Of a stretch of DNA of 64,000 nucleotides, positions 8,386 through 62,737 are shown piece by piece. The position numbers and the translations under genes were made by a program. The notes under the pieces are model-generated. The model searched no databases and was not told where the DNA came from. It saw only the letters and a program-made list of their open reading frames with translations. This DNA is from Actinomycetes bacterium (GTDB lineage Bacteria > Actinomycetota > Acidimicrobiia > Acidimicrobiales > Bog-793), in NCBI GenBank assembly GCA_021829645.1, contig JAKBPI010000001.1, positions 7,206 through 71,205 on the forward strand, in the 5' to 3' direction. Numbering within the stretch: position 1 is the stretch's first letter; the number at the start of each line of letters is the position of its first letter.

Positions 8386-11052
8386 GTGGATACTTGCCTA
8401 AGTAGTTTTGACATTATCAATGCAGCTAAAAAATATTTGGAAAACGCCGATGTCGCTTCGCATACAGATACGATACTGGCTTGCACAACCATATCGTTCA
8501 ATCAAACATCTCACGCAAAAAGTCTCGCCGCATCAATGGCGATATGTCATCCTTCAGCCAAATTGGCTGTTCTACTGACAGACGAACAAATTGCAGACGC
8601 CGTCTTTGACGAATTACAAAATATAGTTTCTTTTCGACCGAACGATATAGGTATCAAAAAAGCAGACTTACACAAACTGATGCTGTTTGCCTCAGGAGAA
8701 GATTTAGCCACAAAGCTTGTACCGGCTTTTGGCCTTTTCACTTTAAACCTTCGACCCAACCAACCTCTTCTTCTTCTCTCCCCTGAAACCGCTGTAATTT
8801 CCTTAGTCAACAATTTGCTCACGCAAACAAACGAATGCGGTGTAGCCTTAGTGCCCTGGCAGACACAGTACTCCCCCGATAAAGACACTCATGGTTTTTT
8901 TGATGCAGAAACCGACGGTTTAACACCTGAAGCATTGGATGTCGATATTTCCGGCACCTTCAACCCCGGAATCGTTGGAGTCAAAGGGGACAAAGGGGCT
9001 GATTTTCTCCGCTGGTGGCACAATGCCGTAAAGCGCAACTTGGCTACTCCGGAAACTTCACAATCTTCAACAAATAAAACGCACCGGACCGCTGGAGCCA
9101 CGCTACTTTCCCAAAAAGTACTGCAGTCTCTTCCATATGCACAACCCTATCTAGACCAGGCAATGGCTCTTTTTTCTCCGGCTATCGTCACGGACCCCGG
9201 ATGTGGCATAGGATTTTGGAACCTGCACCAACGACCATTACACCTTACGGATAACGGTATTGTGACAACAGGAAACAGCCCGATTTCCCTGATGCATTTT
9301 GCCGGACTCGACCCTCATAAGCCTTATATCCTTTCTGCTGCCACATCTCATCATCCGAGGGTCTTGCTCAGCAAAGATCCCGTTCTCAGGCAGTTGTGCC
9401 AGGGTCAAATAGACCGACTCATCGGAGGAAAATTTGAATCGGCAGAAGACCTCACCAGTCAAACTACGTTCTGTGACGGCAATACCCTTGACGACAGAAT
9501 GCGCCGTCTATTACATAGAGCGATCCTCGAAGAAGGGTTTGACAACTTAACAGTAGGTGACCCGTTCAACCGAGAAGGCTTAGACGAATTTTATAGTTTC
9601 TTATCCGCAGCCGATCCCAAGAGAACCTCCGGACCGAGAGTACCGGGGTATTTACTGGAGATCTATGAAGAGCGAAAGGACTTAGCCCTCAACTTTCCCA
9701 GACTCACAACAGTAGATGCTTTACCATATAGAAACTGGGTAGCCTTTCATGGCGTCAAAGAAGAGGTGCCCCCGGGTAAGCTGAGAGAAATCCTGGCAGA
9801 AACACCTTGGTGGAAGTCGCCCACTTCCGTATTTTGTGCCGGAGCAGATGGGTTGCGAAAAGGCGTTGCACTCACCGGCTACTTGAGAGCAGAGGTTGGG
9901 GTTGGAGAAGCTGCACGACTTGTCTTAGACGCTTTGGTGGGAGCCAGAATCGAAGTGAGTCCCGTCAATGTAGAATTGCCCACTAGCAGACAAAATCACC
10001 CTCTGAACTCGGACGCCCAGATAGTTGACAGAAAAATCAACGTCATTTGGATGAATGCCGAACACTTACTCGGCTTTGCTGCTTTGGTCGGTCCGGAATT
10101 TTTTGAAGGCAGATATACCGTCGGGGGTTGGGCATGGGAAACAGAACGCCTACCGCAGCGCATGGCTGCCAACTCTGACTTGGTGGATGAAATTTGGGTA
10201 CCCAGTAAATACGTTATGAATGCCGTCGAGCCATATGTTGAATGCCCCGTATATACTTTCCCGCATCCGATAACCGAGCCACCCGTAGATCAGAATTTCG
10301 ACTTGGTTGGACTCCTTGAAAAAGAAGCTCAAAGTAGAAATTCTCTTGTAAGTCTTGACCCAAAAGAAGTTAAGTCAAGATTCAAGTTTTTATATACGTT
10401 TGACTTCAACTCATCCCTGCAACGAAAAAATCCTTTTGGTGTTATAGAAGCTTTTAAAAAAGCATTTCAGGAAAACGAAGGACCTATACTTATCCTCAAA
10501 AGCGTCAATGGTTATAAATGGCAAGCCGATCTAGAGAAATTAAAGTACGAAACTTTAGATAGGTCAGACATCATCATTCTGGATACTTATCTTTCTTCAG
10601 CAGAAAGAGGAGCGTTGCTGAACAGTTGTGACTGCTATGTTTCACTGCATAGGTCTGAAGGTTTTGGACTCGGTATGGCAGAAGCAATGACACTTGCCAA
10701 ACCGGTAATAGCGACTGGTTATTCCGGAAATCTAGAGTTTATGGACGATACCACCGCTTGGTTGGTATCGGCTGAAAAAGTGCCTGTTGGCTTTCTTGCC
10801 CCTCCTTATGACCCAGACGATCGTTGGGGAAATCCGAATTTGGATGAAGCAGCTCAATATATGAGAGATATTGTTTCCGATCCGAAATCCGCCCAACAAA
10901 AAGCTGACCGCGCTAAAATCAAAGTTCTAGCAGAACACGGGAGAGCAAAAGCCATTAAATTCTTGACAAACAGAATAGATGAAATAGCCAAATTAGAAGA
11001 AGCAGAGTACATAAGCCCGGCGGCAGCGGCTTTAAGAAAGCATTTACTTTAG
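8386..11052 (+). CDS. Two-domain glycosyltransferase: GT-A-like N-domain with a degenerate DxD, a conserved linker, and a GT4 (GT-B) C-domain
   Basis: Paralog of 12286..16284 over its whole length. GT4 motifs: RKNPFGVIEAF and SLHRSEGFGLGMAEAMTLAKPVIATGYSGN. GTG start as given by the track. Confidence 0.75.
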   Translation: MDTCLSSFDIINAAKKYLENADVASHTDTILACTTISFNQTSHAKSLAASMAICHPSAKLAVLLTDEQIADAVFDELQNIVSFRPNDIGIKKADLHKLMLFASGEDLATKLVPAFGLFTLNLRPNQPLLLLSPETAVISLVNNLLTQTNECGVALVPWQTQYSPDKDTHGFFDAETDGLTPEALDVDISGTFNPGIVGVKGDKGADFLRWWHNAVKRNLATPETSQSSTNKTHRTAGATLLSQKVLQSLPYAQPYLDQAMALFSPAIVTDPGCGIGFWNLHQRPLHLTDNGIVTTGNSPISLMHFAGLDPHKPYILSAATSHHPRVLLSKDPVLRQLCQGQIDRLIGGKFESAEDLTSQTTFCDGNTLDDRMRRLLHRAILEEGFDNLTVGDPFNREGLDEFYSFLSAADPKRTSGPRVPGYLLEIYEERKDLALNFPRLTTVDALPYRNWVAFHGVKEEVPPGKLREILAETPWWKSPTSVFCAGADGLRKGVALTGYLRAEVGVGEAARLVLDALVGARIEVSPVNVELPTSRQNHPLNSDAQIVDRKINVIWMNAEHLLGFAALVGPEFFEGRYTVGGWAWETERLPQRMAANSDLVDEIWVPSKYVMNAVEPYVECPVYTFPHPITEPPVDQNFDLVGLLEKEAQSRNSLVSLDPKEVKSRFKFLYTFDFNSSLQRKNPFGVIEAFKKAFQENEGPILILKSVNGYKWQADLEKLKYETLDRSDIIILDTYLSSAERGALLNSCDCYVSLHRSEGFGLGMAEAMTLAKPVIATGYSGNLEFMDDTTAWLVSAEKVPVGFLAPPYDPDDRWGNPNLDEAAQYMRDIVSDPKSAQQKADRAKIKVLAEHGRAKAIKFLTNRIDEIAKLEEAEYISPAAAALRKHLL

Positions 11053-11057
11053 ATATC

Positions 11058-12176
11058 GTGAATAAAACACAAACTGTCACTCCAGCCACATCCACATCCG
11101 GTGCTGTTACGGCAGTAATAGTTGTTTACACCGTCAGTAGATTAGCGCTTTTGCTAGCTGCTGATGCTATTTCATCTCTGCATACCAACTTGCCTATTCC
11201 AAGGGTGCTGGCACCATGGGATGGCACATACTACATAGGAATACTTAAATCAGGCTACCCCATACACGTCAATCCTGCGTCTGTCAATTCTGAACCCATT
11301 GCATTTTTTCCTTTCTACCCTCTTTTGGGTAAAGCAATTACCGTAATACTTTCTACACACGCCAGCATAACTCTTGAGGTTGTTGCCATGATAGCTGGAG
11401 GAATCGCATCTGTTTTTGCCACCCTCATAGCAAGAGAGTACAGTGACCCCACCACAGCAAGAAGGGCAGGAATTCTTTTTGCTCTTTTCCCGGGTTCTGT
11501 GATATCGGTAATGGCTTATGCGGATTCATTAGCCGTAATGTTTTCAGTAGCAGCAATTTTCTTTCTTATGCGGAAACGCTATATCGTAGCTGGCATTGCC
11601 GCAGGATTAGCCACTGCCACCTTGTCACTCATGTTATTGCCACTGTTGCTTTTCATTCTGATTTACGGCATTAGAAACAAGAGTTTCAAATCTTTAATTA
11701 CTCTTGTATTGACTGGATCTGGCGGAGGAGCCTACCTGCTCTACCTCTGGATCAGCACCGGTTCCCTTTTCACCTGGTCTAGAGTAGAAGCCGATCACTG
11801 GATGGTACGCTTGAGTTGGCCTTGGGAATTCCCCACGGCATTCTCGGCTTATGCTTTTACTTTTCAAGGATCCTATGTACTGACTGTTGCAAGCATTGTA
11901 GTAACGGCACTGGGACTGTATGCCCTATGGCGGATGAGAGCACCTATTGAATGGTTTATATTTTCCATTGCCATCATCTTTGCCATTACCTTTGACGGCG
12001 GAGCCTGGATCGCACCCAGATTTTTATACGACACCCCGCCTATGATCATCGCCCTTAGTATGTGGGGCGCTAGGAAAAATATTATATTCTTTCCTTTGTG
12101 CTTCATTTCCTTTTGCTGTTTGCTGGGACTCTTATTTGCCTATAGTCCCGGCAACATGGTATTTTTAAATCCATAA
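11058..12176 (+). CDS. Polytopic GT-C-type membrane glycosyltransferase, PIG-V/mannosyltransferase-like
   Basis: About 9-10 hydrophobic helices. The first-loop motif APWDGTYYIGILKSGY resembles the PIG-V-like family signature. It starts 5 nt after the upstream GT gene. Confidence 0.55.
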   Translation: MNKTQTVTPATSTSGAVTAVIVVYTVSRLALLLAADAISSLHTNLPIPRVLAPWDGTYYIGILKSGYPIHVNPASVNSEPIAFFPFYPLLGKAITVILSTHASITLEVVAMIAGGIASVFATLIAREYSDPTTARRAGILFALFPGSVISVMAYADSLAVMFSVAAIFFLMRKRYIVAGIAAGLATATLSLMLLPLLLFILIYGIRNKSFKSLITLVLTGSGGGAYLLYLWISTGSLFTWSRVEADHWMVRLSWPWEFPTAFSAYAFTFQGSYVLTVASIVVTALGLYALWRMRAPIEWFIFSIAIIFAITFDGGAWIAPRFLYDTPPMIIALSMWGARKNIIFFPLCFISFCCLLGLLFAYSPGNMVFLNP

Positions 12177-12285: not shown

Positions 12286-15200
12286 GTGTTGTCTAATAAG
12301 TTATCGACTTATAAAAATCTTCATGCCTGTACCATCGTAGCTAAAAACTATTTGGCTGCGGCCAGAGTACTGGCAGAGTCTTTTTTAGCCATTCATGAAG
12401 GTGCTACTTTTACCACCCTTGTTTTAGATGACAGAGCAGGTACTATAGATTCCGCTCAGGAACCTTTCAGAGTCTTTGGCTTGGAGAATATAGGTCTCAG
12501 CCAAGAAGAAATCACTGAAATGACAGCCATCTATACCGTCATGGAACTAGCTACCGCTGTAAAACCTTGGTTACTGGAAACACTGCTAAATGAGGCAGAG
12601 GCTGTACTGTATCTGGATCCGGACATTAAGGTTTACTCTCCATTAGACGAATTGTTCATTGCGGCCAAAGAAGGCAAAATTGTATTGACCCCACACGCCG
12701 TCAAACCTATGCCTAGGGACAACAAAACAACTGATGAAACAGCTGTTTTATCGTCCGGTATTTACAACCTGGGCTTTATCGGGTTAGGTAAAGATAAGAA
12801 AAATGCCGACAAAGAAAAACCCTGTATAAAAGATTTTCTGGCCTTCTGGGAAGAAAGGCTCAAAAAAGAATGCTACGTAGACATAGCCAATATGCGCTTT
12901 GTGGATCAACGTTGGATTGATTTCGTGCCTGGAATATATGACGTAGCTATTATCAAAAATCCGGTCTATAACGTGGCTTATTGGAACTTGGACCACCGAG
13001 AAATAGGTTACGAAGATGGCCGTTACACAGTCAATGGTATGCCTTTGGCGTTTTTCCATTTTTCGGGATATAACCCGCATTTACCTCACCTACTTAGTAA
13101 ACACCAAGGGGAAAAACCCAGAATATTATTCTCTGAACATCCTCAGTTAAAAAAGCTTTGCGACGAATACGGACAAGATTTGATGGCACAAGGTTTTGAT
13201 AAGACCACCAAAGAGCCCTACCTTTATGACAGACTCGGCAATGGTATAAAACTGGATCAGTTTTCTAGGCGCCTTTACCGTGATGCTCTATTGAAAGCCT
13301 CAAATGAAAACCATGGGACACAAACCGAAACCCACTCTCCCCCCGGCCCTTTCTATAAAGATGGTAATGACTTTGTGATATGGCTTAATGAGCCACCGGA
13401 AGACCTTACGGCAAAAATGGCGTCGTCTGTTCATCAACCATCCCCAATACGTCTATACAACAACGCATACCCCAGCAGATACTTACTCGCCATTCATCAA
13501 GCAAGAGTCGATTTGCAAGCTGCTTTTCCAGACCCATTAGGCACCGACCAATATCGCTTGGTGGAATGGGCCGACAACGAAGCAATTTTGGGAAGACTCG
13601 ACCCGCGCTTGGTGCCCGGATCACCGGCTGCAAAAGAACTCCTAAAACTCGCATCCGGTAAGAGTTACAATCACCAATCTGCTACTACTGCAAATATCCC
13701 TTTGCCTCGATCACAAACTCGGGCAGGAGGACGGCATGACAAACCTATCTTAGCTGACTCCTCTGATCACCTCATACCCGGTATGCGTGTCACGGGTTAT
13801 TTCCAAGCAGAAACAGGCACCGGTGAGCACGCCCGTCTTGTTCTCTCGGCTGTTGAAAAAGCCGGGATTACCGCAGGTGCATACATAGACAACAATATGA
13901 TAAGTCGACAATCTCATACCTTTGACTATCCGGACAGAAATGACCTCAACACTAATGTGGTCTGCATAAATGCAGACCAGCTACCCCATTTTGCCGAAAA
14001 GGTAGGTAGGGAATTTTTTGAAGGTCGCTACAATATCGGTCTATGGGCATGGGAATTGGAAGAAATGCCTGAACACTTTGCAAAAGCCGCTTCGTGCTTG
14101 GATGAAATTTGGGCCAACAGTTCCTTTACGCAACAGGCTATTTCAAAAATTACTGACAAGCCGGTCTTTTCTTTTCCGCTGCCCGTGAAAGAACCGATCA
14201 TAACAAAAAAATTTGACCGGAAAAGATTGGGAATTGGCTCAGAACCAATGTTTCTCTTTTGCTTTGACCTAATGTCGGTGATGGAAAGGAAAAACCCACT
14301 GGGCCTCATTGAAGCTTTTTCTATGGCATTCCAAGACGGCGAAGGACCCAAGCTGGTCATAAAAGCCGTAGGGGGAGAGCATAAAATAGCCGACCTGGAG
14401 AAGCTGAAGTATGCAGCATCTAAACGCAGTGACATCATTATTTTTGATTCCTATCTTTCTTTTGAAGAAAATGCTGCCCTCATAGAATCGTGCGATTGCT
14501 ATGTCTCGCTGCACAGATCGGAGGGCTTTGGTTTGACATTAGCCGAAGCCATGGCACTGGCTAAGCCTGTAATATCCACTAAGTATTCCGGCAACTTGGA
14601 TTTTATGACACATGAAAATTCTTTTCTTGTCCCATTTGAACACGTCAACATACCTTCTGGTTGCGATCCATATCCATCTTCCATGAAGTGGGCTGATCCT
14701 GACCTAGAAATGGCGGCCGGCTTTATGCGTGACGTAGTAGAAAAACCGGATTTGGCTAAAGAAAAAGGCCTGCTCGCCAAAAGTCAGGTCTTACAAATGC
14801 ACGGCTTAGAAGCAAGGATTCAATTCATAAAAACTCGCTTTGATTTTGCACAAAACTACCTCTCGACGGAAGGAAATAAGGTGTCGGTACAAAAAATTAA
14901 TACGCCTCAGATCCCACAAGATCCACCCTTGATCGCTTTGGCAAAATCCACTCCCAACCTATCCACACCAAGCAAAAAAGGGGTTTTTGCCAAGGCCTAC
15001 AGAAAAGTACTGTATAAAGCGCTACGCCACCACGACGAACACCAACGACAGCTTGACATAGCAATGGCAGCCGGTATCGAACACGTAGCCCGACTCATAA
15101 CTGAATATGGGCAGGTCATTAATGACCTACAAACCAACATCAGTGAAATACGAAAGTCATTGACAGATGATGTTGAACCAAAGAGTGGTCATATAGAACT

Positions 15201-16284
15201 CAACACGAAACAGACTAAATCCAATTTGCAACGCATACATGATTTAGAAAAGCAACTCTTTGAAATTAGAGAATTAATTTATAGTCAAAAAACTGTCATC
15301 AAGTCTCAAGAAGATAGATTTGCCTCGGATATCAAAAAGTTCCTTACCATAAAAGACGAACTGGACGCTTTGGAAAGTCATTTTGAACGCCTAACAGAAG
15401 AGGTAAGTATCATTGACGGAAAAGAAAAGCGTCGTAAACTTTTAGAAATAGAAAAAATGCTTGAACAACTAAAAACCATGCCCCTCTCATCAATGTTTGA
15501 CAAACCTGAATACCTGATAAAAGGTGTTGACGGATTTTCAACTTTAGGCTACGACCTGGTTTTAGAAAAAAACGCCAAATCCTATTTAGAAATAATCGAT
15601 CAGCAAATATCGGCAGGGGACAAAAAGAAGACCCGCGGCAACGATAACTACACGACGCAGAGTGCCTTAGAATCGACATCCGACGAACAAGACTCTTCAC
15701 CTATTTGGAGTGCTAAATCCCTATGGGACACCAGTGACATGGTATCTGAAAGACAAAAATCATATCTAAAACTCCTCAGTGCCTATGAAGGTGTTGTCGA
15801 CTTGGGATGTGGGCGAGGTGAGTTATTGGAACTACTAAGAACTTTTGGGATAGCCGCAAAAGGTATCGAAAAAGATGCTGATTTAGTTCTCCTGTGCCAA
15901 AGAGCTGGCTTAGATGTTATTTGCCTTGACTTTCTGGATTACCTCTCCTCAATAAAAAAGAAGACAAAAAGCGCTATTGTGGCAGCCAGTATTGTTGAGT
16001 ATTTATCTGATTCCGACCTGACACGACTCATCAAATTGGCCTACAATGCTTTGTTGCCCGGGTCGATGCTGCTACTGGAAATGAAAAATCCATACCACAT
16101 AAAGTCCTTTGTCAATACTTGGACAGATCCAGACACGATAAGGCCTATTGCCCCGGAAGTATTACTCCTAAAATGTCATGAAACTGGTTTTCAACGAGCT
16201 GAACTATTTTTCCCACTCGGAACGGGGGAATACAAAAACGATCTGGCAGAGCAAGATTATTACGCAATCATTGCCTATGCGTAG
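12286..16284 (+). CDS. 1332-aa fusion: GT-A-like domain (DPD intact) + linker + GT4 domain + ~200-aa coiled coil + class I SAM methyltransferase
   Basis: YLDPDI (DPD at 12616-12624), FHFSGYNPHLPH, RKNPLGLIEAF, SLHRSEGFGLTLAEAM. A charged helical segment follows (..IHDLEKQLFEIRELIYSQ..LEIEKMLEQLK). Methyltransferase motif I is VVDLGCGRGELLELL. Confidence 0.75.
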   Translation: MLSNKLSTYKNLHACTIVAKNYLAAARVLAESFLAIHEGATFTTLVLDDRAGTIDSAQEPFRVFGLENIGLSQEEITEMTAIYTVMELATAVKPWLLETLLNEAEAVLYLDPDIKVYSPLDELFIAAKEGKIVLTPHAVKPMPRDNKTTDETAVLSSGIYNLGFIGLGKDKKNADKEKPCIKDFLAFWEERLKKECYVDIANMRFVDQRWIDFVPGIYDVAIIKNPVYNVAYWNLDHREIGYEDGRYTVNGMPLAFFHFSGYNPHLPHLLSKHQGEKPRILFSEHPQLKKLCDEYGQDLMAQGFDKTTKEPYLYDRLGNGIKLDQFSRRLYRDALLKASNENHGTQTETHSPPGPFYKDGNDFVIWLNEPPEDLTAKMASSVHQPSPIRLYNNAYPSRYLLAIHQARVDLQAAFPDPLGTDQYRLVEWADNEAILGRLDPRLVPGSPAAKELLKLASGKSYNHQSATTANIPLPRSQTRAGGRHDKPILADSSDHLIPGMRVTGYFQAETGTGEHARLVLSAVEKAGITAGAYIDNNMISRQSHTFDYPDRNDLNTNVVCINADQLPHFAEKVGREFFEGRYNIGLWAWELEEMPEHFAKAASCLDEIWANSSFTQQAISKITDKPVFSFPLPVKEPIITKKFDRKRLGIGSEPMFLFCFDLMSVMERKNPLGLIEAFSMAFQDGEGPKLVIKAVGGEHKIADLEKLKYAASKRSDIIIFDSYLSFEENAALIESCDCYVSLHRSEGFGLTLAEAMALAKPVISTKYSGNLDFMTHENSFLVPFEHVNIPSGCDPYPSSMKWADPDLEMAAGFMRDVVEKPDLAKEKGLLAKSQVLQMHGLEARIQFIKTRFDFAQNYLSTEGNKVSVQKINTPQIPQDPPLIALAKSTPNLSTPSKKGVFAKAYRKVLYKALRHHDEHQRQLDIAMAAGIEHVARLITEYGQVINDLQTNISEIRKSLTDDVEPKSGHIELNTKQTKSNLQRIHDLEKQLFEIRELIYSQKTVIKSQEDRFASDIKKFLTIKDELDALESHFERLTEEVSIIDGKEKRRKLLEIEKMLEQLKTMPLSSMFDKPEYLIKGVDGFSTLGYDLVLEKNAKSYLEIIDQQISAGDKKKTRGNDNYTTQSALESTSDEQDSSPIWSAKSLWDTSDMVSERQKSYLKLLSAYEGVVDLGCGRGELLELLRTFGIAAKGIEKDADLVLLCQRAGLDVICLDFLDYLSSIKKKTKSAIVAASIVEYLSDSDLTRLIKLAYNALLPGSMLLLEMKNPYHIKSFVNTWTDPDTIRPIAPEVLLLKCHETGFQRAELFFPLGTGEYKNDLAEQDYYAIIAYA

Positions 16285-16419: not shown

Positions 16420-18135
16420 GTGGTCACAAGTCAGATATCACCGGAAGACATTAATCTGGGTCTTCCCATACCCAAAAATAGTAGGTTGCGCTTCATCAAA
16501 AAGGTAGTCGCCAAATTAAACTGGCCTTTCCTCTCACATCAGATTAAAATCAACAACAGTATTTTGTCGCAAATGAGCCAGCTGTCGGAGAATGAAGACA
16601 ACTTAACCCAAGCCGTAAACGGTATTTTGGGGACATTAGATCAAATTCAATTTTCCCTTGCTCATCATACTTCCGTCTTAGAGCGTTTTGAACAGACACT
16701 TTCCCGACATGACACGTTTATTCACCACAACGAAGAAATACTAACCGGCAATGCAAAAAATCTTGAGCACCATCAAGTAGTCCTAACCAGACTGGACAAA
16801 ACCGCCGAAGAATACGGTAGGGTTTTGCAACACCATGACGAAGTGTGTACGCGTCAAGATTTGACCTTAGAAAGCCACGAGAGCTATATATCGCATATCA
16901 AAGAGATCTCTGATCATTATGCCAGGTTGAGTATCCTGATTGAACTCGTACAGCAACAATCTTTTACAAGACTTCATGAAACACTTGGGCCACTTCAGGA
17001 AACACTTAACAGCCATGAGCGGCTGTTAAGTGAGCAATATGATGCGGTAAACACCAGGATTCAAGAACAATATGATGCGGTGAACACCAGGATTCAAGAA
17101 CAATATGATGCAGTAAACGGCAGGATTCAAGAGCAATATGATGCAGTAAACGGCAGGATTCAAGAGCAATATGATGCGGTGAACACCAGGATTCAAGAAC
17201 AATATGATGCAGTAAACGGCAGGATTCAAGAGCAATATGATGCAGTAAACGGCAGGATTCAAGAGCAATATGATGCGATGAATAACCTTACTGAGGTACA
17301 AAATCAAAAAACCCTCTCTACTGCTCAAAATGCTATTAATAAAGAAATAAAGTCGATCTGGCCGCGGTTAGCACAAGTAGATCTTTTCCTCAATGAGGTA
17401 AAGAGATCTCTACCTGCTCCTCCTACAAAAGAATCACTTGCAAAACTGCCTTCAGCATTTGAAGGACTTTACGCCGCATTCGAAGAGTCATTTAGAGGTC
17501 CAGAAACCCTAATCCAGTCGAGACTGGAGGTTTACTTACCATTTATTAACCAGATATCCAATCTTGGGCCCGTATTGGACATTGGCTGCGGTCGTGGAGA
17601 ATTTTTGGAGATGTGTGCTCAACACAAAATTAATGCATATGGCGTAGACTCTCTACAAGAAAATGTTGAACGCTGCAAACGAAAGGGGTTGACTGTTCAA
17701 TGGGAAGATGCCTTTGAGCACTTACAGTCTGTGAAACCTGATTCGCTTAGTGTAATAACGGCAATACACATCATTGAGCACCTGGATTTAGCCCATCAGA
17801 TAGAACTTATAGACAGGGCATTAGCAGCACTTGTGCCTGGCGGTATGCTCATCATTGAGACCCCAAACCCAGAAAACGTTTTAGTCGGAAGCTGCTACTT
17901 TTATATGGATCCAACACATGTAAAACCAATACCTCCGGCACTACTAGAATTTTTCCTCAACACAAGAGGATTTATAGATGTAGACATACTCCGACACGAC
18001 AGAGACTCGTTGATCGACACAATAGATGACATTGAACATAGCACAAATGACGGTATGTCTGCTATTACAGAAACGCTGTCAACATTATTTAATTCTGCGC
18101 CTGATTACGCTGTCATAGGAAAAAAGATTGCTTAG
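16420..18135 (+). CDS. Coiled-coil protein with a C-terminal class I SAM methyltransferase (paralog of the C-terminus of 12286..16284)
   Basis: The N-terminal ~330 aa are helical and repetitive, including 7 exact plus 1 degenerate 11-residue repeats. Methyltransferase motif I is VLDIGCGRGEFLEM; post-I/II regions align with the 1332-aa protein (..LVPGGMLIIETPNPEN vs ..LLPGSMLLLEMKNPYH). Confidence 0.75.
   Translation: MVTSQISPEDINLGLPIPKNSRLRFIKKVVAKLNWPFLSHQIKINNSILSQMSQLSENEDNLTQAVNGILGTLDQIQFSLAHHTSVLERFEQTLSRHDTFIHHNEEILTGNAKNLEHHQVVLTRLDKTAEEYGRVLQHHDEVCTRQDLTLESHESYISHIKEISDHYARLSILIELVQQQSFTRLHETLGPLQETLNSHERLLSEQYDAVNTRIQEQYDAVNTRIQEQYDAVNGRIQEQYDAVNGRIQEQYDAVNTRIQEQYDAVNGRIQEQYDAVNGRIQEQYDAMNNLTEVQNQKTLSTAQNAINKEIKSIWPRLAQVDLFLNEVKRSLPAPPTKESLAKLPSAFEGLYAAFEESFRGPETLIQSRLEVYLPFINQISNLGPVLDIGCGRGEFLEMCAQHKINAYGVDSLQENVERCKRKGLTVQWEDAFEHLQSVKPDSLSVITAIHIIEHLDLAHQIELIDRALAALVPGGMLIIETPNPENVLVGSCYFYMDPTHVKPIPPALLEFFLNTRGFIDVDILRHDRDSLIDTIDDIEHSTNDGMSAITETLSTLFNSAPDYAVIGKKIA
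17032..17295 (+). repeat. In-frame 33-bp tandem repeat, 7 near-identical units plus 1 degenerate unit, encoding EQYDAVN(T/G)RIQ
   Basis: Units start at 17032, 17065, 17098, 17131, 17164, 17197 and 17230. Units 2-4 and 5-7 form a 99-bp higher-order duplication that differs at one base. Unit 8 (17263-17295) is degenerate. Confidence 0.95.
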
Positions 18136-20500
18136 TGATTTAGCTAAACCAATAGCATTTTGGAGCCCACTGCCACCGGCAAAAAGTGGTATTTCAGATT
18201 ACAGCTTTGAACTTCTCGAGCACATGAAAAGAAAATGCTCACTCGTCGCCGTAATCGACGATCAGTACTACAAAAGTTGTAAACCACCGACCAATATAGA
18301 AATCATAAAGGCATCTTCCTATATCCATTCTGAATTTAGTACCAATATATTTCAACTCGGAAATCATTTTGGCTTTCATGGCTATATGTACAAGCCACTG
18401 CTAGAGTACGGCGGTATCACTGTATTACATGACTTATCGCTTTTCGACTTTCATGTATCGTTATGCAATAGCGTAGACTCTAGTATTTTAATGGAAGAAA
18501 TTCTTTTTGATTCTCCAGATCTCAAATCGTCAACTGATTTATATAAAAAATTAAGTGATTGTCAGCATGACCGCTTGGCTTACCCACTACTACGAAGAAT
18601 TGCAGATGCCAGTAATTTGATTATTGTGCACTCAAAATATGCCAAACAATTCATTGAAAAAAAGTACCGGACGGATGTTCGTCACATTCACCAAGGTATA
18701 TTGGGCTGCAATAATGTAGATGCAGAGAGTGGCGAGTTAAAAATAGTACTTGGGATGTTCGGTAGCATAGCTAAACACAAAAACACATTAGAAGTCTTAA
18801 AAGCTTTCATTAAAGCTCGTTCTAAAAATCACAATATAAAACTTCTTATTGCCGGCAGAGTAGATGATCCTAATATTTTAAATAGCATAAACCGCACAAT
18901 AGCGTCTTTGCCTACCTCCATCCAAGAAGATGTAGAAATACATACAAATCTTTCATACGACCAGTTGCAAAAGTGTATTGCCAGATGTGATTTGCAAATT
19001 CTTCTCCGTTGGCCCACAGCCGGAGAAACAAGTCGAGTATTGCTACATGGATTTACCATGGGGAAACCGGCTCTCATCTCCCCATTGCCACAATGGTTAG
19101 AATACCCAAATGAGTTTTGCTGGCCTATAGGGAATGATCCAAGGACTACTACAGTCGAAGATATAGCCGATAAAATACTTGAGGCAACATCAGATAAGAA
19201 AAAACTCCTGAAGTCTGGAGTTTTAGCAAAACAATGGGCAGAAGACAACCTGGATTGGGATGCCATTTCATCACAGCTTTTGAAATATACAAGATCTAAT
19301 AGTATTGCTGTCTTGAATAAAGTAGAAAAAAATACTCTGGAAACACCCGATCTAAATAATGGCATAAACGTTATAGCTGCTTTGGATGCAAGCACCGGAT
19401 TAGCAGAAGCAGCCAGACGTTCCATAAAAGCTCTTTACCAATCAGGCATTCCTCTATCTGTGTCCAATTATGATCTGGGGGTACCTACCAATAGTAAAAA
19501 TGTTCCTAGCGAAATTGCAAATCTCAAACGAGGACTTATATTTCCAGACATCAATATATGTTACTTAAATATCAATGAACTACATTGTTTAGATAAATCA
19601 CTATTTTTCACAACCAGAAAAGGACAAAAACTCATTACATCTTGGTGGTGGGAAGCAACACAAATACCCAATGGCCTCATCCAACTTATTACCGAATTAC
19701 ATCCTGATGCAATAACAGTAGGTAGTAATTTTGTTAAAGATATCCTAATGACGTTTTTCCCTTTTCCTACTTACGTAGTTCCACCGGTAGTCAACGTAGA
19801 ATACGATTCCGCGATCAAAAAGCAAAGATTTGGAATCCCAGAAAACAAACTCGTTTATCTGGTATCTTTTGATGCCAACTCCTCGTTCCAACGAAAAAAT
19901 CCTATTGGAGCCATTGAGGCATACAAAAGAGCTTCTCTTGAACACATTACAGACTCTGTATTGGTAGTCAAGGCAAGTAACTTAGAAAAATACCCTGAAG
20001 CCAGGCAAATAATTCAAGCGAAGCTAGCTAGCGTGAATGGAGTGCTGATTGAAGACCATATAACAGCCAAGGAAATGGGGTCCCTACTTTCTTTAGCGGA
20101 CATCTACATATCCCTCCATCGTTCCGAAGGCTTTGGTCTTGGCATGGCGGAGTCTATGTATCTAGGCAAACCTGTAATAGGCACATCATACTCAGGAAAC
20201 ATAGATTTCCTAAATAACGATACCGGATGTCCTGTCAGCTATAAGCTTGTCGAAATCAACCGAGGAGATTTGTACCTTAATTCTTATCTTGATTACGCAG
20301 AATTACAAGCTCCAAAGGGTAAGCACTCTTATTGGGCAGAGCCGAATTTAGATGATGCCACAAAGTGGATTCAAGAATTAGCGCGTTCTGAATCACTCAG
20401 AGAAAAGCTTGGTAAAGCTGGCAAACAGTTTATTGTGAATAATTACAATAGTAAAATTCACGCTGAAAAAATACACCACATTATTAAGCAAATAATGTAG
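18128..20500 (+). CDS. Double GT4 glycosyltransferase (two GT-B modules in one 790-aa protein)
   Basis: The C-terminal half carries the same module as the two upstream GTs (FQRKNPIGAIEAY, SLHRSEGFGLGMAESMYLGKPVIGTSYSGN). The N-terminal half is a second GT4-like module. The TTG start overlaps the stop of the methyltransferase gene by 8 nt. Confidence 0.8.
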   Translation: MLSDLAKPIAFWSPLPPAKSGISDYSFELLEHMKRKCSLVAVIDDQYYKSCKPPTNIEIIKASSYIHSEFSTNIFQLGNHFGFHGYMYKPLLEYGGITVLHDLSLFDFHVSLCNSVDSSILMEEILFDSPDLKSSTDLYKKLSDCQHDRLAYPLLRRIADASNLIIVHSKYAKQFIEKKYRTDVRHIHQGILGCNNVDAESGELKIVLGMFGSIAKHKNTLEVLKAFIKARSKNHNIKLLIAGRVDDPNILNSINRTIASLPTSIQEDVEIHTNLSYDQLQKCIARCDLQILLRWPTAGETSRVLLHGFTMGKPALISPLPQWLEYPNEFCWPIGNDPRTTTVEDIADKILEATSDKKKLLKSGVLAKQWAEDNLDWDAISSQLLKYTRSNSIAVLNKVEKNTLETPDLNNGINVIAALDASTGLAEAARRSIKALYQSGIPLSVSNYDLGVPTNSKNVPSEIANLKRGLIFPDINICYLNINELHCLDKSLFFTTRKGQKLITSWWWEATQIPNGLIQLITELHPDAITVGSNFVKDILMTFFPFPTYVVPPVVNVEYDSAIKKQRFGIPENKLVYLVSFDANSSFQRKNPIGAIEAYKRASLEHITDSVLVVKASNLEKYPEARQIIQAKLASVNGVLIEDHITAKEMGSLLSLADIYISLHRSEGFGLGMAESMYLGKPVIGTSYSGNIDFLNNDTGCPVSYKLVEINRGDLYLNSYLDYAELQAPKGKHSYWAEPNLDDATKWIQELARSESLREKLGKAGKQFIVNNYNSKIHAEKIHHIIKQIM

Positions 20501-20531
20501 ATATAAAATATTTCTATAATTTAATTATCTA

Positions 20532-22433
20532 CTATCTTTTTCTTATAACCCATAGGTCGATACCATAAGCATGTGCTCTAGGTTTGCCATAGTCGCGAGT
20601 AATATACTTAGTAACTAGTTTTGCATTAGAAGCCTCTGTGTTCACCAATATAGCTTGAACATGATTTTTATCTACGAATTCTTTTATACTATTGAATGCT
20701 GATTTGGATGGAGGTGAATTCAAAGGAAACGTTTCGTAGTCAGCAAAATACGAAAATGCTGATTCGACATTACTTGGCATCAGCACCGCCGGAAGGCCTG
20801 ATGGATAACCTGGTGGAATTGTGAACAGGTCATAGCCGCCCAGCAAGCGAAAATGCATATTTGCTAACAATTGCCATACCATAGCTTCATTATCTGCCAT
20901 AATTGGATAGGGGTATGCTAGTGTGACTGCTCCGGTCGGTATATAATTTAAATCACTTGTGGTAAAAAAGTGCGAGTAAGAATTTGACATTTCTCCATTT
21001 GAAAGCTGATATGGCCAATTCGGAATTAAGCTTATAATAATAACGCCGATTACGGCTACAACAGCCAAAATCTTAGCGTAAGCTTTTATTGATAATCTTT
21101 TTATAGACTGAACAAAATTGTTAGTTTTATCACGTAGTTCAGATAAATATATGTTTATAAGATAATCTATAATAAATCCTACCAGAATTGCCATAAATAG
21201 GTCAGTATACATTGCTATGCGGGATGCCAAAATATTATCTAGTATTGGAACGTGCTGAAATAAGTCAAATGGCAGGGGTATAGAATAATTTTTATTATCA
21301 ATTGTCAGATATGGTCCTAACGACAATAAAAATGCAAAAAATGCCATGACTGTACATAGCTGAACCCACTTATTTTTTCGTAATCGATACACACCAATTG
21401 CTAAACCTAGCAGAAGAGGCGCCCCAACGTAACTACCATTTTCAATCCAATCGCCCGCTAAAAAAGATGTCCCTATATTTTTCCAGCTTTGTGGATAAAG
21501 CAATTGACCAACGTTTGGTACTACTATTCCTAGAAGATCTGCATGAAATTGGTTATTCCACGTATGTATCATAGCTATAAGATGATTAGGACCGTAGATA
21601 GAATAATATATTGGATAACCTAAGACAACCACAGAGATACCTACAGTTACAAGCAAATTAGGTAAGTTGTTCCACAATCTCCTAATGGATTCCTTTGGGT
21701 ATGCTATGAAAAGCATACCGCAGCCACCAAGAGCGATAATAGCAGTCGTAGCCAGTATCTCACTTGACATCATATATTGGAATATTATTAATATTGCTAG
21801 TAGAATCGCTAAGCGGTATTTGTGATTACTTTCAGTACAAAACATCTTATATAAAACATAAAAAATTAGAGGAGGGAAAGGTATAAAAATTAAATTTAGA
21901 TGCCCTGTACCCTCTGAAATCATATACGGGGAAAAGCCATAAAAAAGCCCGGCAAGAAAAGGGGGTAAAAATTTATGAGTTATATGAGGTATTTTGCTCA
22001 CAACATAGAACATTGCAGTAGCTGATAGCACAAATGAGGACCATAACAATAAATTGTATGTTGCAATCGCATTTATCAGATAGGTAATGGGGGATAATAT
22101 TATTGCATATAAAAAGTAACTAGAACTAATTGCTAAGTTCGCTCCTGCTGGGTAATTCAGCCAATTGGTGCTATAAGGATTAATTCCATGAAATACAGCA
22201 AAAGGAGACCATGACAGAAACCATGCCGACTGAGCTACATCACCACAACCACAATTAGGCAACTGGCTTGGATCTAAAGGGTATCCTGGTAAATAAGCTA
22301 CGAGGGCTAGCAGACCAAAAATAACTCCCGCAAGCAGTATTCTCTTATATTTTTTATAAAAGGGGTAAAAAAATAACTTCTTATTTGTATTTTTAGGTAG
22401 CATCAACAATTTTCCATAATTTTTACGCTTCAA
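20532..22433 (-). CDS. Large polytopic membrane protein, probable GT-C-fold glycosyltransferase; the most AT-rich gene in the window
   Basis: 633 aa with more than 10 hydrophobic helices and a C-terminal soluble domain. It is convergent with the GT cluster and lies 49 nt downstream of gatB on the same strand. A sampled line (21301-21360) has 21/60 G+C. Confidence 0.5.
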   Translation of the reverse strand: MKRKNYGKLLMLPKNTNKKLFFYPFYKKYKRILLAGVIFGLLALVAYLPGYPLDPSQLPNCGCGDVAQSAWFLSWSPFAVFHGINPYSTNWLNYPAGANLAISSSYFLYAIILSPITYLINAIATYNLLLWSSFVLSATAMFYVVSKIPHITHKFLPPFLAGLFYGFSPYMISEGTGHLNLIFIPFPPLIFYVLYKMFCTESNHKYRLAILLAILIIFQYMMSSEILATTAIIALGGCGMLFIAYPKESIRRLWNNLPNLLVTVGISVVVLGYPIYYSIYGPNHLIAMIHTWNNQFHADLLGIVVPNVGQLLYPQSWKNIGTSFLAGDWIENGSYVGAPLLLGLAIGVYRLRKNKWVQLCTVMAFFAFLLSLGPYLTIDNKNYSIPLPFDLFQHVPILDNILASRIAMYTDLFMAILVGFIIDYLINIYLSELRDKTNNFVQSIKRLSIKAYAKILAVVAVIGVIIISLIPNWPYQLSNGEMSNSYSHFFTTSDLNYIPTGAVTLAYPYPIMADNEAMVWQLLANMHFRLLGGYDLFTIPPGYPSGLPAVLMPSNVESAFSYFADYETFPLNSPPSKSAFNSIKEFVDKNHVQAILVNTEASNAKLVTKYITRDYGKPRAHAYGIDLWVIRKR

Positions 22434-29006: not shown

Positions 29007-31481
29007 TTGTCAAAAAAACAACTAATGTTCATTACTATGTCAAAGCGGTCCTACAAGAAGAAAAAGCCTGCGGCGCCTCAAGCCGGCAACCGTCAAAGCC
29101 CCAAAGCCAGCACCGGACCCGTTACCGGTACACCTAAGCAAAAACCAAGAATCAGTAATATAGGCAAAACCAAGTCTGAAGACTCACAACCCAGTAGAGC
29201 TGTTACCCTCATCAACCGGTTTGGACCGCTCGTGCTGGTTGCCATAGCGGTTGGCTTTGGACTGAAAGAGCTTTGGCCCGAAACCTCGACCGTAGCCTAT
29301 ATAGACGATGCATCCGTGCACGCCCAGATGGCCCGCTGGGCTGCTTCACAGATGACGCACGGACACCTCCCTCTGGACGGTTGGTGGCCTTACCTACAGC
29401 TTGGATCTCCGCAATTTTTGCACTACCAGAGCCTCTCCTCAATAGTCACCGGAGCGGTGGGACTGGTATTCGGTCAAGCACAATCTTTTGCCTGGTTGCT
29501 TTATCTTTTGCTGGCCACTTGGCCGATTAGTATTTATATTTCCGCCAGGCTGTTTCGCTTCCCTCGATGGGTGGCAGGGGCTGCAGCTTTGGTTTCACCT
29601 CTTCTCATGAGCAACATGAACATCGGCTATGAAGAGCAGACCTACATCTGGATAGGATACGGCCTCACAACTCAGCTCTGGGGCATGTGGTTTTTACCAC
29701 TCGCTTGGGGGTTTACCCACAGAGCAATGGAGTCTTGGAAAAAGTTGCTCCCCGCAGCTATTTTCATCACCCTCACCACGGCTTTTCACTTTATGACCGG
29801 CTATTTGGCCCTGCTGCCGATCGTGTTATTCCCCTGGCTTGTGCCAGCTGATTTAAAAGAAAGACTGAAGAGGGCCTTTGCGCTTCTCATCGGTACCGGT
29901 CTATGTCTGGGATTTGTTGTCATACCGGTACTACAATATAAACACTGGGCAGCAGTCAACGAATTGCTGGCACCTACGCCTATCTCGCAATCATATGGGG
30001 CACGCCCCGTCATCAGGTGGTTCTTTGACGGTCAGCTGCTTGACTACGGTCACTTTCCGATAATTACCATTTTGGCCATCATAGGTATTGTCTTTTCGTT
30101 GATAAAAATCTACAGCGACATAAGATTTCGACCTATCGTCGTGATGTTTTTTGTTTCCGCTTTCCTGATGTTCGGAAAACCTTTTTGGGGCCCGCTGCTT
30201 CGCCTGATACCGGGAAGCGAAGATCTCTTTTTGCGTAGATTCTTGATGGGTGTGCAATTGACATCAATTTTCTTTGCCGGCATCGCCGCCTATACTACAG
30301 GTTACTACACACTTATACTGTTCAGAAAGGTTATCAAATGGGCAGATCTGAATGGTATCTATAGCTTGCAGTCGACCATAAGATCCGGTTTCTCAGCTCT
30401 GCTCGGTTGTGCACTGCTCGTCATTGCCCTTACGCCGGCTTGGCAAGCGGTAAGTGCGCATGATGCCCTCAACTCACAGGATATTTCTACCCAAGTACAG
30501 GCAGACTCTTTTTACAGCCAGTTCTTGATGCCCATGGTAAACAAAATGAAAAAACTGGGCGGCGGCCGCCTTTACGCCGGCACACAGGAACTGACAAGCG
30601 TCAATTACGCGACGTGTTACAACGCAAACGATATACCAGACCCAAAACTCTCACAGGAAAATCAGTCTACCGCTATTGCTTATGTGGGTACTCTGGATTT
30701 ACCGGTATATAAGTGGATAGAACAGTACAATATCCCGGAAGTCGGCTATACCATGCGTACGGCAGCATTGATGTCCAATCCCGAACAGAACTTTGACCAG
30801 TGCAACCCGGGAGACTACTCCATGTTCGGCGTCAGATACATCATCCTGTCACCGTCAACCCTTGCCATCAATGCACTGCCGGTACATGCCAAGCTGATCA
30901 TGCAAAACACCTACTACTCCCTTTACGAAATACCATCTAACAGCTACGTTCAGGTTGTCAACACCCAAGGTACAATCGACGAAAACAGAACCGATATAGG
31001 AGCACAATCCCTGTCGTTCATCGACAGCAACTTGCCCTATAAGAAAATATATCCGACCGTCTCCTACGCCGGAGCCCCGGCTGCCCAACCTACGCTCGCC
31101 CCCGGAGAGCACCCCCATGGCTCACCCGGCTATGTGATAAACGAACGTCCCGATTTGGTAGAAGGAGAACTTACCACTAAAGTCCATCTCAATAGGCGTG
31201 CAGTGGTGCTTTTATCTGCTTCATATGACCCGGGGTGGACGGTCACGGTCAACGGTAAACCCGCTCAAACGGAGATGGTAGCCCCGGCTCTTGTAGGCGT
31301 CACACTCAATAAAGGTACCTATACCGTACGCTTTTTATATCAGGCAGATCCTTACTACCCGGAATTTTTCGGCATGCTGGCGGTTGGAATCTTGGGCCTT
31401 GGTTTTGGTCCCGGTGTATACGAACGCTATCAAAACAAGAAAAAAGTAGGCAACACAAAAGAAACGGCTGATGCTGTCTAA
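29007..31481 (+). CDS. Large polytopic membrane protein with a C-terminal extracytoplasmic domain and a terminal TM helix (YfhO-like GT-C glycosyltransferase candidate)
   Basis: Basic N-terminus, more than 10 TM helices, first-loop YIDDASVH, a ~300-aa soluble region, and a final TM helix FFGMLAVGILGLGF. The likely start is ATG at 29037. Confidence 0.5.
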   Translation: MSKKQLMFITMSKRSYKKKKPAAPQAGNRQSPKASTGPVTGTPKQKPRISNIGKTKSEDSQPSRAVTLINRFGPLVLVAIAVGFGLKELWPETSTVAYIDDASVHAQMARWAASQMTHGHLPLDGWWPYLQLGSPQFLHYQSLSSIVTGAVGLVFGQAQSFAWLLYLLLATWPISIYISARLFRFPRWVAGAAALVSPLLMSNMNIGYEEQTYIWIGYGLTTQLWGMWFLPLAWGFTHRAMESWKKLLPAAIFITLTTAFHFMTGYLALLPIVLFPWLVPADLKERLKRAFALLIGTGLCLGFVVIPVLQYKHWAAVNELLAPTPISQSYGARPVIRWFFDGQLLDYGHFPIITILAIIGIVFSLIKIYSDIRFRPIVVMFFVSAFLMFGKPFWGPLLRLIPGSEDLFLRRFLMGVQLTSIFFAGIAAYTTGYYTLILFRKVIKWADLNGIYSLQSTIRSGFSALLGCALLVIALTPAWQAVSAHDALNSQDISTQVQADSFYSQFLMPMVNKMKKLGGGRLYAGTQELTSVNYATCYNANDIPDPKLSQENQSTAIAYVGTLDLPVYKWIEQYNIPEVGYTMRTAALMSNPEQNFDQCNPGDYSMFGVRYIILSPSTLAINALPVHAKLIMQNTYYSLYEIPSNSYVQVVNTQGTIDENRTDIGAQSLSFIDSNLPYKKIYPTVSYAGAPAAQPTLAPGEHPHGSPGYVINERPDLVEGELTTKVHLNRRAVVLLSASYDPGWTVTVNGKPAQTEMVAPALVGVTLNKGTYTVRFLYQADPYYPEFFGMLAVGILGLGFGPGVYERYQNKKKVGNTKETADAV

Positions 31482-43806: not shown

Positions 43807-43930
43807 TTTAAATATTACTTTCAATCATAGATTGACTTCTTACCCATATCGTCTTTACAGCCAAAACTATAGCCAACCATGAAATCATCTGTTGTCCTAA
43901 AAAATAACATACGTCGATATTAATGCCGAA

Positions 43931-62467: not shown

Positions 62468-62703
62468 ATATTCTCCATTTGCCCGTTACGATATTTATCT
62501 ACAAATATATATAGCACAGAATCTTTAATTGCCAATACTTAGTAGTGATGAAAAATACTTTTCACTACGAATTGGAAACATTAGAAAATGATTGCTACTT
62601 CAACCAAACAGCAAAAGATCATGCATTACTGAGAATGTTGTACTGTGTTCTACTTATTCGCGAATTCTACTTCATTAGCTGTTTCAAGTTGTCATACCGT
62701 GAA

Positions 62704-62737
62704 GAATACAGGAGTACTAAGAATACAGGAGTACTAA
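62704..62737. repeat. 17-bp exact tandem direct repeat (gaatacaggagtactaa x2) in an AT-rich spacer
   Basis: 62704-62720 is identical to 62721-62737. Confidence 0.9.

Follow-up and report, generated by a model that had tools for sequence, protein, structure and literature searches.

A stretch of 64,000 nucleotides from an Actinomycetes bacterium (GenBank assembly GCA_021829645.1, contig JAKBPI010000001.1, positions 7,206 to 71,205 of the forward strand; hereafter the window) contains a same-strand cluster of glycosyltransferase (GT) genes, one member of which encodes a protein of 571 residues with a long predicted-helical stalk and a C-terminal methyltransferase domain. Within the part of this gene that encodes the stalk lies an array of 33-bp units that is by far the strongest tandem repeat of the 64-kb window. 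The array is a coding variable-number tandem repeat (VNTR) in the stalk of the methyltransferase; its units are near-identical and in frame, and their copy number varies. The features of the locus are given in Table 1.

Table 1. Features of the stalk-methyltransferase locus, in coordinates of the window.
Feature	Position	Strand	Remarks
Host gene, 571-aa stalk-methyltransferase	16420..18135	+	GTG start; gene callers choose the same start in contigs L001 and L093
Basic amphipathic segment, aa 21-38, SRLRFIKKVVAKLNWPFL	16480..16533	+	Mean hydrophobicity (H) 0.59; net charge +5; HeliQuest D 1.95
Heptad-phase helical segment, aa ~44-180	16549..16959	+	3.5-residue periodicity; His-rich g/a columns
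Hendecad-phase helical segment, aa ~180-330	16957..17409	+	Holds the array; 3.67 periodicity, constant phase
33-bp tandem array, 8 in-frame units, aa 205-292	17032..17295	+	Tandem Repeats Finder; units written out in register
Second copy of the 99-bp block (units 5-7; B' first)	17164..17262	+	Missing from the 5-unit allele of contig L001
Predicted class I S-adenosylmethionine (SAM)-dependent methyltransferase domain, aa 345-571	17452..18132	+	Methyltransf_23; nearest structure 3DLI; pLDDT (AlphaFold2 per-residue confidence) mostly >90
790-aa protein, two GT4 modules	18128..20500	+	Start overlaps the stalk-methyltransferase stop by 8 nt
1332-aa protein: weak GT8-like N-terminus, GT4, helical region, second methyltransferase	12286..16284	+	Methyltransferase 34% identical to that of the 571-aa protein
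888-aa GT4 protein and 372-aa polytopic PIG-V-like (GT-C type) membrane protein	8386..12176	+	Upstream, in the same-strand cluster
633-aa polytopic membrane protein	20532..22433	-	Convergent, downstream; ~11 transmembrane-like segments

Structure of the Array

Written out in register, the array consists of units in the order A B C D B' C D E, all in frame with the open reading frame (ORF) of the host gene; units 1-7 encode EQYDAVN[T/G]RIQ, and the degenerate unit 8 (E), GAGCAATATGATGCGATGAATAACCTTACTGAG, encodes EQYDAMNNLTE. The first-pass annotation of this DNA had described seven units and one degenerate unit in a single frame, a description borne out by the register alignment and by Tandem Repeats Finder, which reports the repeat both at a period of 33 (17032-17276, 7.4 copies, 91% matches, score 392) and at a period of 99 (17032-17282, 2.5 copies, 96%, score 467). 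The peptide consensus given at that time stands as well, whereas the nucleotide consensus had omitted the synonymous GA(G/A) site in codon 1. The ACC/GGC (Thr/Gly) alternation is the sole non-synonymous site among the full units; the GCG/GCA and GTA/GTG differences are, like that of codon 1, synonymous.

Units 2-4 (17065-17163) and units 5-7 (17164-17262) are a single base apart (A at 17067 and G at 17166; GAA versus GAG), which supports the earlier proposal that a 99-bp block was duplicated and that the expansion is recent. The unit that opens the second copy, B', is a hybrid that combines a GAG head, as found in D and E, with the tail of B; the longest exact repeat inside the array is 111 bp. 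An ORF of 100 aa on the minus strand (17026-17328) overlaps the array and is regarded as a by-product of the repeat.

Copy-Number Variation

The best database match to the stalk-methyltransferase is a protein of 538 aa (P0001) that is the same outside the array and has exactly 33 residues fewer. The contig that encodes it (L001, a 238-kb contig of a metagenome-assembled genome, MAG, GCA_027408045.1) is 99.96-99.99% identical to the window over positions 6420-28135 (22 kb), and the sole structural difference between the two is the absence from L001 of one 99-bp block, which leaves an array of five units, A B C D E. Given the hybrid structure of B', one unequal exchange between B and E would interconvert the 8- and 5-unit alleles. 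The 571-aa form is found on five contigs and the 538-aa form also on five.

Within samples, allele representation was followed in runs X1-X4 through depths of Logan 31-mer unitigs, which are derived from reads; the unitig at 17149-17196 is specific to the 8-unit form. This unitig has a depth of 83 in run X1, where the flanks have a depth of 163, and of 124 in run X4, where flank depth is 204; there is no such unitig in run X3 (flank depth 166) or in run X2 (flank depth 7). In X1 and X4, which are mine-drainage read sets, the 8-unit-specific k-mers amount to 51-61% of flank depth, and the remaining unitig depths fit the multiplicities expected for a mixture containing about 50-60% of the 8-unit allele. 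Because the junction and unitig depths fit such a mixture, the two alleles co-exist within samples. A 6-unit allele was considered for run X3, but the depth ratios (1.43 and 2.89, against an expected 1 and 2), though suggestive, are mutually inconsistent, and no claim is made for it. In runs X6 and X7, from mine tailings, D is followed by a hybrid unit with G>A at 17166 and 17181, giving GAACAATATGATGCGGTA..., which implies that a slightly diverged strain would carry further variants of the array.

The same segment of the stalk has been expanded in related lineages. A sister lineage (53% identity) has proteins of 530, 519, and 508 aa, with three, two, and one copies, respectively, of an unrelated hendecad, DTKYSLAKELS, in a 33-bp DNA array whose copies are 98% identical. 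At the same place in the stalk, orthologue P0004 has two copies of EMNEFKHTVKD, and orthologue P0002 has older units of the TQQEAIAEGLR type in a period-33 array at 77%. Each lineage has thus expanded the segment independently, always by 11-residue steps. An invariant copy number, which would have counted against the first-pass reading, is not what is observed: the number differs between near-identical genomes (8 versus 5 units), within single samples, and in an orthologue with a different unit (3, 2, or 1 copies). Comparison of the orthologues further shows a stalk that is strongly conserved at either end and variable in the middle.

In the wider family, tandem duplications (at least 80% identity) occur in the N-terminal helical region of 21 of 118 homologues, with none in the methyltransferase domain and none in shuffled controls. 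The periods of these duplications run from 11 to 35 residues (11, 14, 16, 17, 19, 20, and others), beyond multiples of 11, and the length of the N-terminal region among the homologues ranges from 94 to 655 aa. The family, in which the stalk comes first and the methyltransferase last, is large and uncharacterized and spans cyanobacteria, proteobacteria, and monoderm-type lineages; if the stalk does act as a ruler, its members are probable chain terminators. Relatives bear the JGI label 'O-antigen chain-terminating methyltransferase'.

The Host Protein

The predicted layout of the stalk-methyltransferase is a basic amphipathic end, a stalk of approximately 300 predicted-helical residues, and a C-terminal methyltransferase; at 0.15 nm per residue, we estimate the length of the stalk at ~45 nm. 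The N-terminal 50 residues are highly conserved across orthologues, and the amphipathic segment within them (aa 21-38), which scores as a lipid-binding helix, is a candidate for the membrane- or partner-binding end of the stalk. An AlphaFold2 monomer model built on an alignment of 74 sequences (mean pLDDT 78.7) has helices at residues 23-135 and 139-330 and, after these, a Rossmann-type domain predicted with confidence. The array region is helical in this model, with pLDDT values of 76-91 at residues 241-290 and of 44-48 at residues 221-235, so the model favors the earlier expectation that the segment is helical rather than disordered.

The stalk changes its periodicity along its length. Hydrophobic periodicity is 3.5 residues over aa 50-205; over aa 205-300 the spectrum has its maximum at 3.67 residues, with a power of 3.24 as compared to 0.02 at 3.5. 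When phase is tracked along the protein, a single heptad register extends from about residue 44 to 175, unbroken across the kink of the AlphaFold2 model at 136-138, and a single hendecad register extends from about residue 184 to 331. The hendecad phase continues past the exact repeats on both sides; the array is thus an amplification of a single unit from a hendecad segment that was already there. Within the units, hydrophobic residues fall at Y3, V6, and I10, a 3-4-4 spacing that the first-pass annotation had read as a hendecad seam and with which the spectral peak agrees. On an 11/3 helical wheel these residues lie within 65 degrees of one another; with its 11-residue periodicity and narrow a/d/h seam, the array segment has the sequence characteristics of a hendecad coiled coil. 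The array has a net charge of -10, no Lys, a mean hydrophobicity of 0.09, and a HeliQuest D of about -0.63, which is far below the lipid-binding range.

In the heptad segment, the dipeptides HH, RH, or SH occupy the same two heptad columns (g/a) in approximately 12 consecutive heptads (window 16660-16930; aa 82-170), and these His-rich columns are kept in orthologues P0002-P0004; metal or pH sensitivity of the stalk is a possible consequence.

The methyltransferase domain matches Pfam Methyltransf_23 at aa 381-485 (58.6 bits). Among solved structures it is closest to 3DLI, an Archaeoglobus fulgidus SAM-dependent methyltransferase, which phmmer matches to aa 350-569 (E 3e-35) and Foldseek matches with a TM(target) of 0.86 at 34% identity (E 5e-22); 3DLI has no stalk and no known substrate or function, so no function can be transferred from it.

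Gene Neighborhood

The GT cluster is read in the order 888-aa protein, 372-aa protein, 1332-aa protein, stalk-methyltransferase, and 790-aa dual-GT4 protein, and the entire arrangement is kept at the locus of a 61%-identical orthologue. The pair formed by the stalk-methyltransferase and dual-GT4 genes is more widely kept, in L001, L002, L005, L008, L011-L019, L033, and L080, which include distant loci. By its modular composition the dual-GT4 protein is polymerase-like, and it would correspond to the WbdA-type partner of a chain terminator; a comparison of this protein with the PDB was uninformative, returning only the GT4 folds of trehalose synthase. The 1332-aa protein has a second stalk-plus-methyltransferase module, so that the operon has fused and free-standing versions of this combination. 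The helical region of the 1332-aa protein opens with the motif KGVFAKAYRKVLYKALRHHDEHQRQLD, which resembles the N-terminus of the 571-aa protein, SRLRFIKKVVAKLNWPFLSHQIKIN.

The convergent 633-aa membrane protein, which has a C-terminal soluble domain, has no Pfam match even at E<=1. Homologues of it adjoin the stalk-methyltransferase/dual-GT4 pair in L012 and L033, and it is a candidate for an uncharacterized membrane glycosyltransferase or exporter of the pathway. The region that holds the dual-GT4 and 633-aa genes (window 18000-22000) has a GC content of 0.37-0.38, as compared to 0.44-0.49 across most of the window, which is compatible with horizontally exchanged glycan genes. Approximately 7 kb from the cluster, an 824-aa membrane protein (window 29007-31481) has a weak match to YfhO (GT-C type), and a YfhO gene also adjoins the family member in L010.

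For the family as a whole, genes for the ABC exporter Wzm/Wzt are frequent neighbors. In Mastigocladopsis (L009) the order is wzm, wzt with a Wzt_C domain, an acetyltransferase gene, the stalk-methyltransferase gene, the dual-GT4 gene, and three GT4 genes; of 23 family loci flanked by 6 kb or more on each side, 12 have wzm/wzt no more than 10 kb away.

A PASTA kinase, together with the labels of relatives' MAGs (Actinomycetes or Bacillota), indicates that the host lineage is probably of monoderm type. Elsewhere in the window, topA (40993-43824, minus strand) has at its 3' end an 81-bp tandem repeat (41004-41175, 2.1 copies, 96% identical), a recent in-frame duplication of 27 aa in the Lys-rich C-terminal tail; near the end of the window, a low-GC stretch holds a perfect 17-bp tandem repeat (62702-62737, 2.1 copies).

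Comparison with Characterized Systems

WbdD of E. coli O9a and K. pneumoniae O3 and O5 is a chain-terminating methyltransferase(-kinase) on a coiled-coil ruler, with the polymerase WbdA as its partner. The stalk-methyltransferase resembles WbdD in placing a methyltransferase and a candidate membrane- or partner-binding segment at opposite ends of a long, coiled-coil-like stalk, in being encoded next to a multi-GT4 protein, and in having relatives beside wzm and wzt with Wzt_C (PMC11231755; PMC5082667). It differs in the lack of a kinase, in its hendecad segment with a natural VNTR, and in the lack of wzm/wzt in the window. A length of ~20 nm has been reported for the WbdD stalk (PMC5082667), versus the ~45 nm estimated here.

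In WbbB of K. pneumoniae O12 and ORF6 of O7, terminator, coiled coil, and GT modules are combined in one polypeptide, and the presence of a coiled coil is regarded as a marker of terminator proteins (PMC11231755). The neighboring 1332-aa protein is likewise a predicted fusion of GT modules, a helical region, and a methyltransferase. Its order is the reverse: the GT modules are N-terminal and the methyltransferase C-terminal, whereas WbbB and ORF6 have an N-terminal terminator and C-terminal GTs.

Tandem duplications that alter the physical length of an extended helical protein, with alleles that differ between strains, are known for the needle ruler YscP, the stalks of trimeric autotransporter adhesins, and the M proteins of streptococci. 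Those proteins are secreted or exposed at the surface, whereas the present stalk belongs to a glycan enzyme predicted to lie at the cytoplasmic face, and its repeat unit is strictly a hendecad.

A Possible Ruler for Glycan Length

Chain capping by a terminator carried on a coiled-coil ruler has been shown for WbdD and WbbB (PMC5082667; PMC11231755), and a similar mechanism can be proposed for the stalk-methyltransferase. The stalk would form a homo-oligomeric coiled coil whose N-terminal end binds the membrane, the translationally coupled dual-GT4 polymerase, or both, and the methyltransferase would cap those chains that are long enough to reach its domain, as in WbdD. Each unit gained or lost would shift the length of the stalk by ~1.6 nm, and a 99-bp block by ~4.9 nm; because 11 residues make three turns of an 11/3 helix, length could change without rotation of the enzyme relative to its anchor. 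Modal glycan length would then differ from one stalk allele to another. This reading draws on the overlap and conserved pairing with the dual-GT4 gene, on the family members found beside wzm/wzt with Wzt_C, and on the lipid-binding-like N-terminus. That the array is a VNTR in a WbdD-like glycan ruler, with alleles that set different modal glycan lengths, is the interpretation toward which we lean, without great confidence.

Several observations weigh against a ruler. In the flank survey of family loci, none of the loci of the closest sub-clade had wzm/wzt nearby, and neither gene was found in the 64-kb window by Pfam searches of ORFs of at least 150 aa or by tblastn with the Mastigocladopsis Wzm and Wzt; the only ABC system in the window is an importer of the Opp/Dpp type (32.7-37.9 kb). 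The two genes could be encoded elsewhere in the genome; with none in the window or the sub-clade, an ABC export route, and with it any need for a terminator, is putative for this locus. The operon also has a second stalk-like methyltransferase module, so that either of the two, or neither, may be the capping enzyme. Relative to WbdD the order of the protein is inverted, with the anchor N-terminal and the enzyme C-terminal, and membership of the WbdD family by descent is rejected, as only generic class I methyltransferases and 3DLI were matched: a phmmer search against the PDB returned no WbdD chain at E<=0.01, WbdD is absent among the best 60 chains listed for a 74-sequence profile search, and it is absent among the 50 best Foldseek matches listed, with 3DLI the best match throughout. 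The helix of the monomer model is broken at 136-138 and has low pLDDT at 221-235, and copy number has been taken from short-read assemblies and from depths of 31-mer unitigs, which break inside the array.

The lack of wzm/wzt in the window and the closest sub-clade, and of homology to WbdD, would also be expected if the VNTR were neutral, with the helix serving only to oligomerize the methyltransferase or scaffold it with the GTs and the alleles drifting since a hendecad tolerates 11-residue insertions and deletions. The heterogeneous repeat periods of the family are as expected if any helix-compatible duplication is tolerated, and two WbdD-like methyltransferases of P. aeruginosa, PA5457 and PA5459, have no clear terminator phenotype (PMC3560663). 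What speaks against neutrality is that the 18% of homologues with duplications have them in the stalk only, that N-terminal length varies as widely as it does, and that orthologues amplified the same segment independently and always by 33-bp units; conserved ends with a variable middle, moreover, are the mark of a spacer that matters through its length rather than its sequence. We consider neutrality rather improbable, albeit deserving of real weight. The break in the modeled helix, with low pLDDT at residues 132-141, suggests an intramolecular antiparallel hairpin, in which helix 23-135 would pack on residues 139-~250 and the array would lengthen a single-helix or overhanging part; such a protein would still act in spacing, with another geometry and scale. 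A 7-residue insertion in P0004 lies exactly at the break, but it amounts to exactly one heptad, and the heptads keep their phase without interruption through the break (94, 108, 97, and 103 degrees). In models of monomers, long coiled-coil helices commonly double back, and the 33- and 11-aa insertions and deletions occur with no compensating change in helix 1; a hairpin is, in our judgment, unlikely.

Helices of perilipin-4 and the apolipoproteins, with 11/33-mer repeats, share with the array the 11-residue periodicity and a 33-residue super-unit, and the 74-sequence profile gives weak matches to chains of apolipoproteins A-I and A-IV. In Pfam, aa 185-320 score 22.5 bits with Phasin, 18.5 with Apolipoprotein, and 16.9 with Perilipin, short of the respective cutoffs of 28.8, 90, and 33. 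The array could on these grounds be a 3-11 helix, like that of perilipins, apolipoproteins, or phasins, that lies flat on membrane or lipid and binds more strongly with more units. These matches, none of which reaches its curated cutoff, are however what a periodicity of 11 residues would produce by itself; the array is acidic, with no Lys and a seam of only three residues, and fails the lipid-binding discriminant (D about -0.63, versus 1.95 for the N-terminal segment), which makes this explanation very unlikely. The differences in copy number could, finally, reflect collapse or expansion of the repeat in assemblies of short-read metagenomes, a hazard to which the first-pass annotation had drawn attention. 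All sources are short-read, and beyond the broken unitigs one contig ends in the array (P0122/P0123). A 4-unit allele (P0124) is treated as weak, as its sole contig (L092; ENA k141_1165008, 4049 bp) is inverted with respect to the window over 949 bp at its start and 97 bp at its end and looks like an assembly chimera. The concern is largely answered by the longest exact repeat of 111 bp, which is shorter than the k=141 inferred from names alone for the ENA contigs with the 8-unit array ('k141_'), and by the junction 31-mers in reads, which for the 8-unit form are present at 83x and 124x in two runs and missing at 166x flank depth in another; with the 8- and 5-unit forms each on several contigs as well, an assembly artefact is scarcely credible.

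Significance

A coiled-coil ruler is established as the determinant of polysaccharide length in a few O antigens of enterobacteria, and we know of no demonstration for these rulers other than through engineered insertions and deletions. A literature search found no report of natural repeat variation in a glycan ruler, nor any on this methyltransferase family. In a hendecad segment, insertion or deletion of strictly 11 residues is the step that is tolerated, which informs the study of non-heptad coiled coils.

If the VNTR does belong to a glycan ruler, nature runs the ruler experiment, with near-clonal bacteria whose stalks are three hendecads apart and related species that differ by one or two, and the alleles would offer a ready-made length series for glycoengineering. 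A bolder proposal, which we hold to be possible rather than probable, is that the ruler is quantized and segregates naturally: the alleles that co-exist in one mine-drainage population (8, 5, and possibly others) would produce discrete classes of glycan length, tandem duplication of helix-compatible stalk units would be family-wide, and glycan length would be rapidly evolvable in a contingency-like manner. Unequal exchange within a 33-bp repeat would then be linked to a quantitative trait of the cell envelope, and glycan length may be a trait under, for example, phage or grazing pressure.

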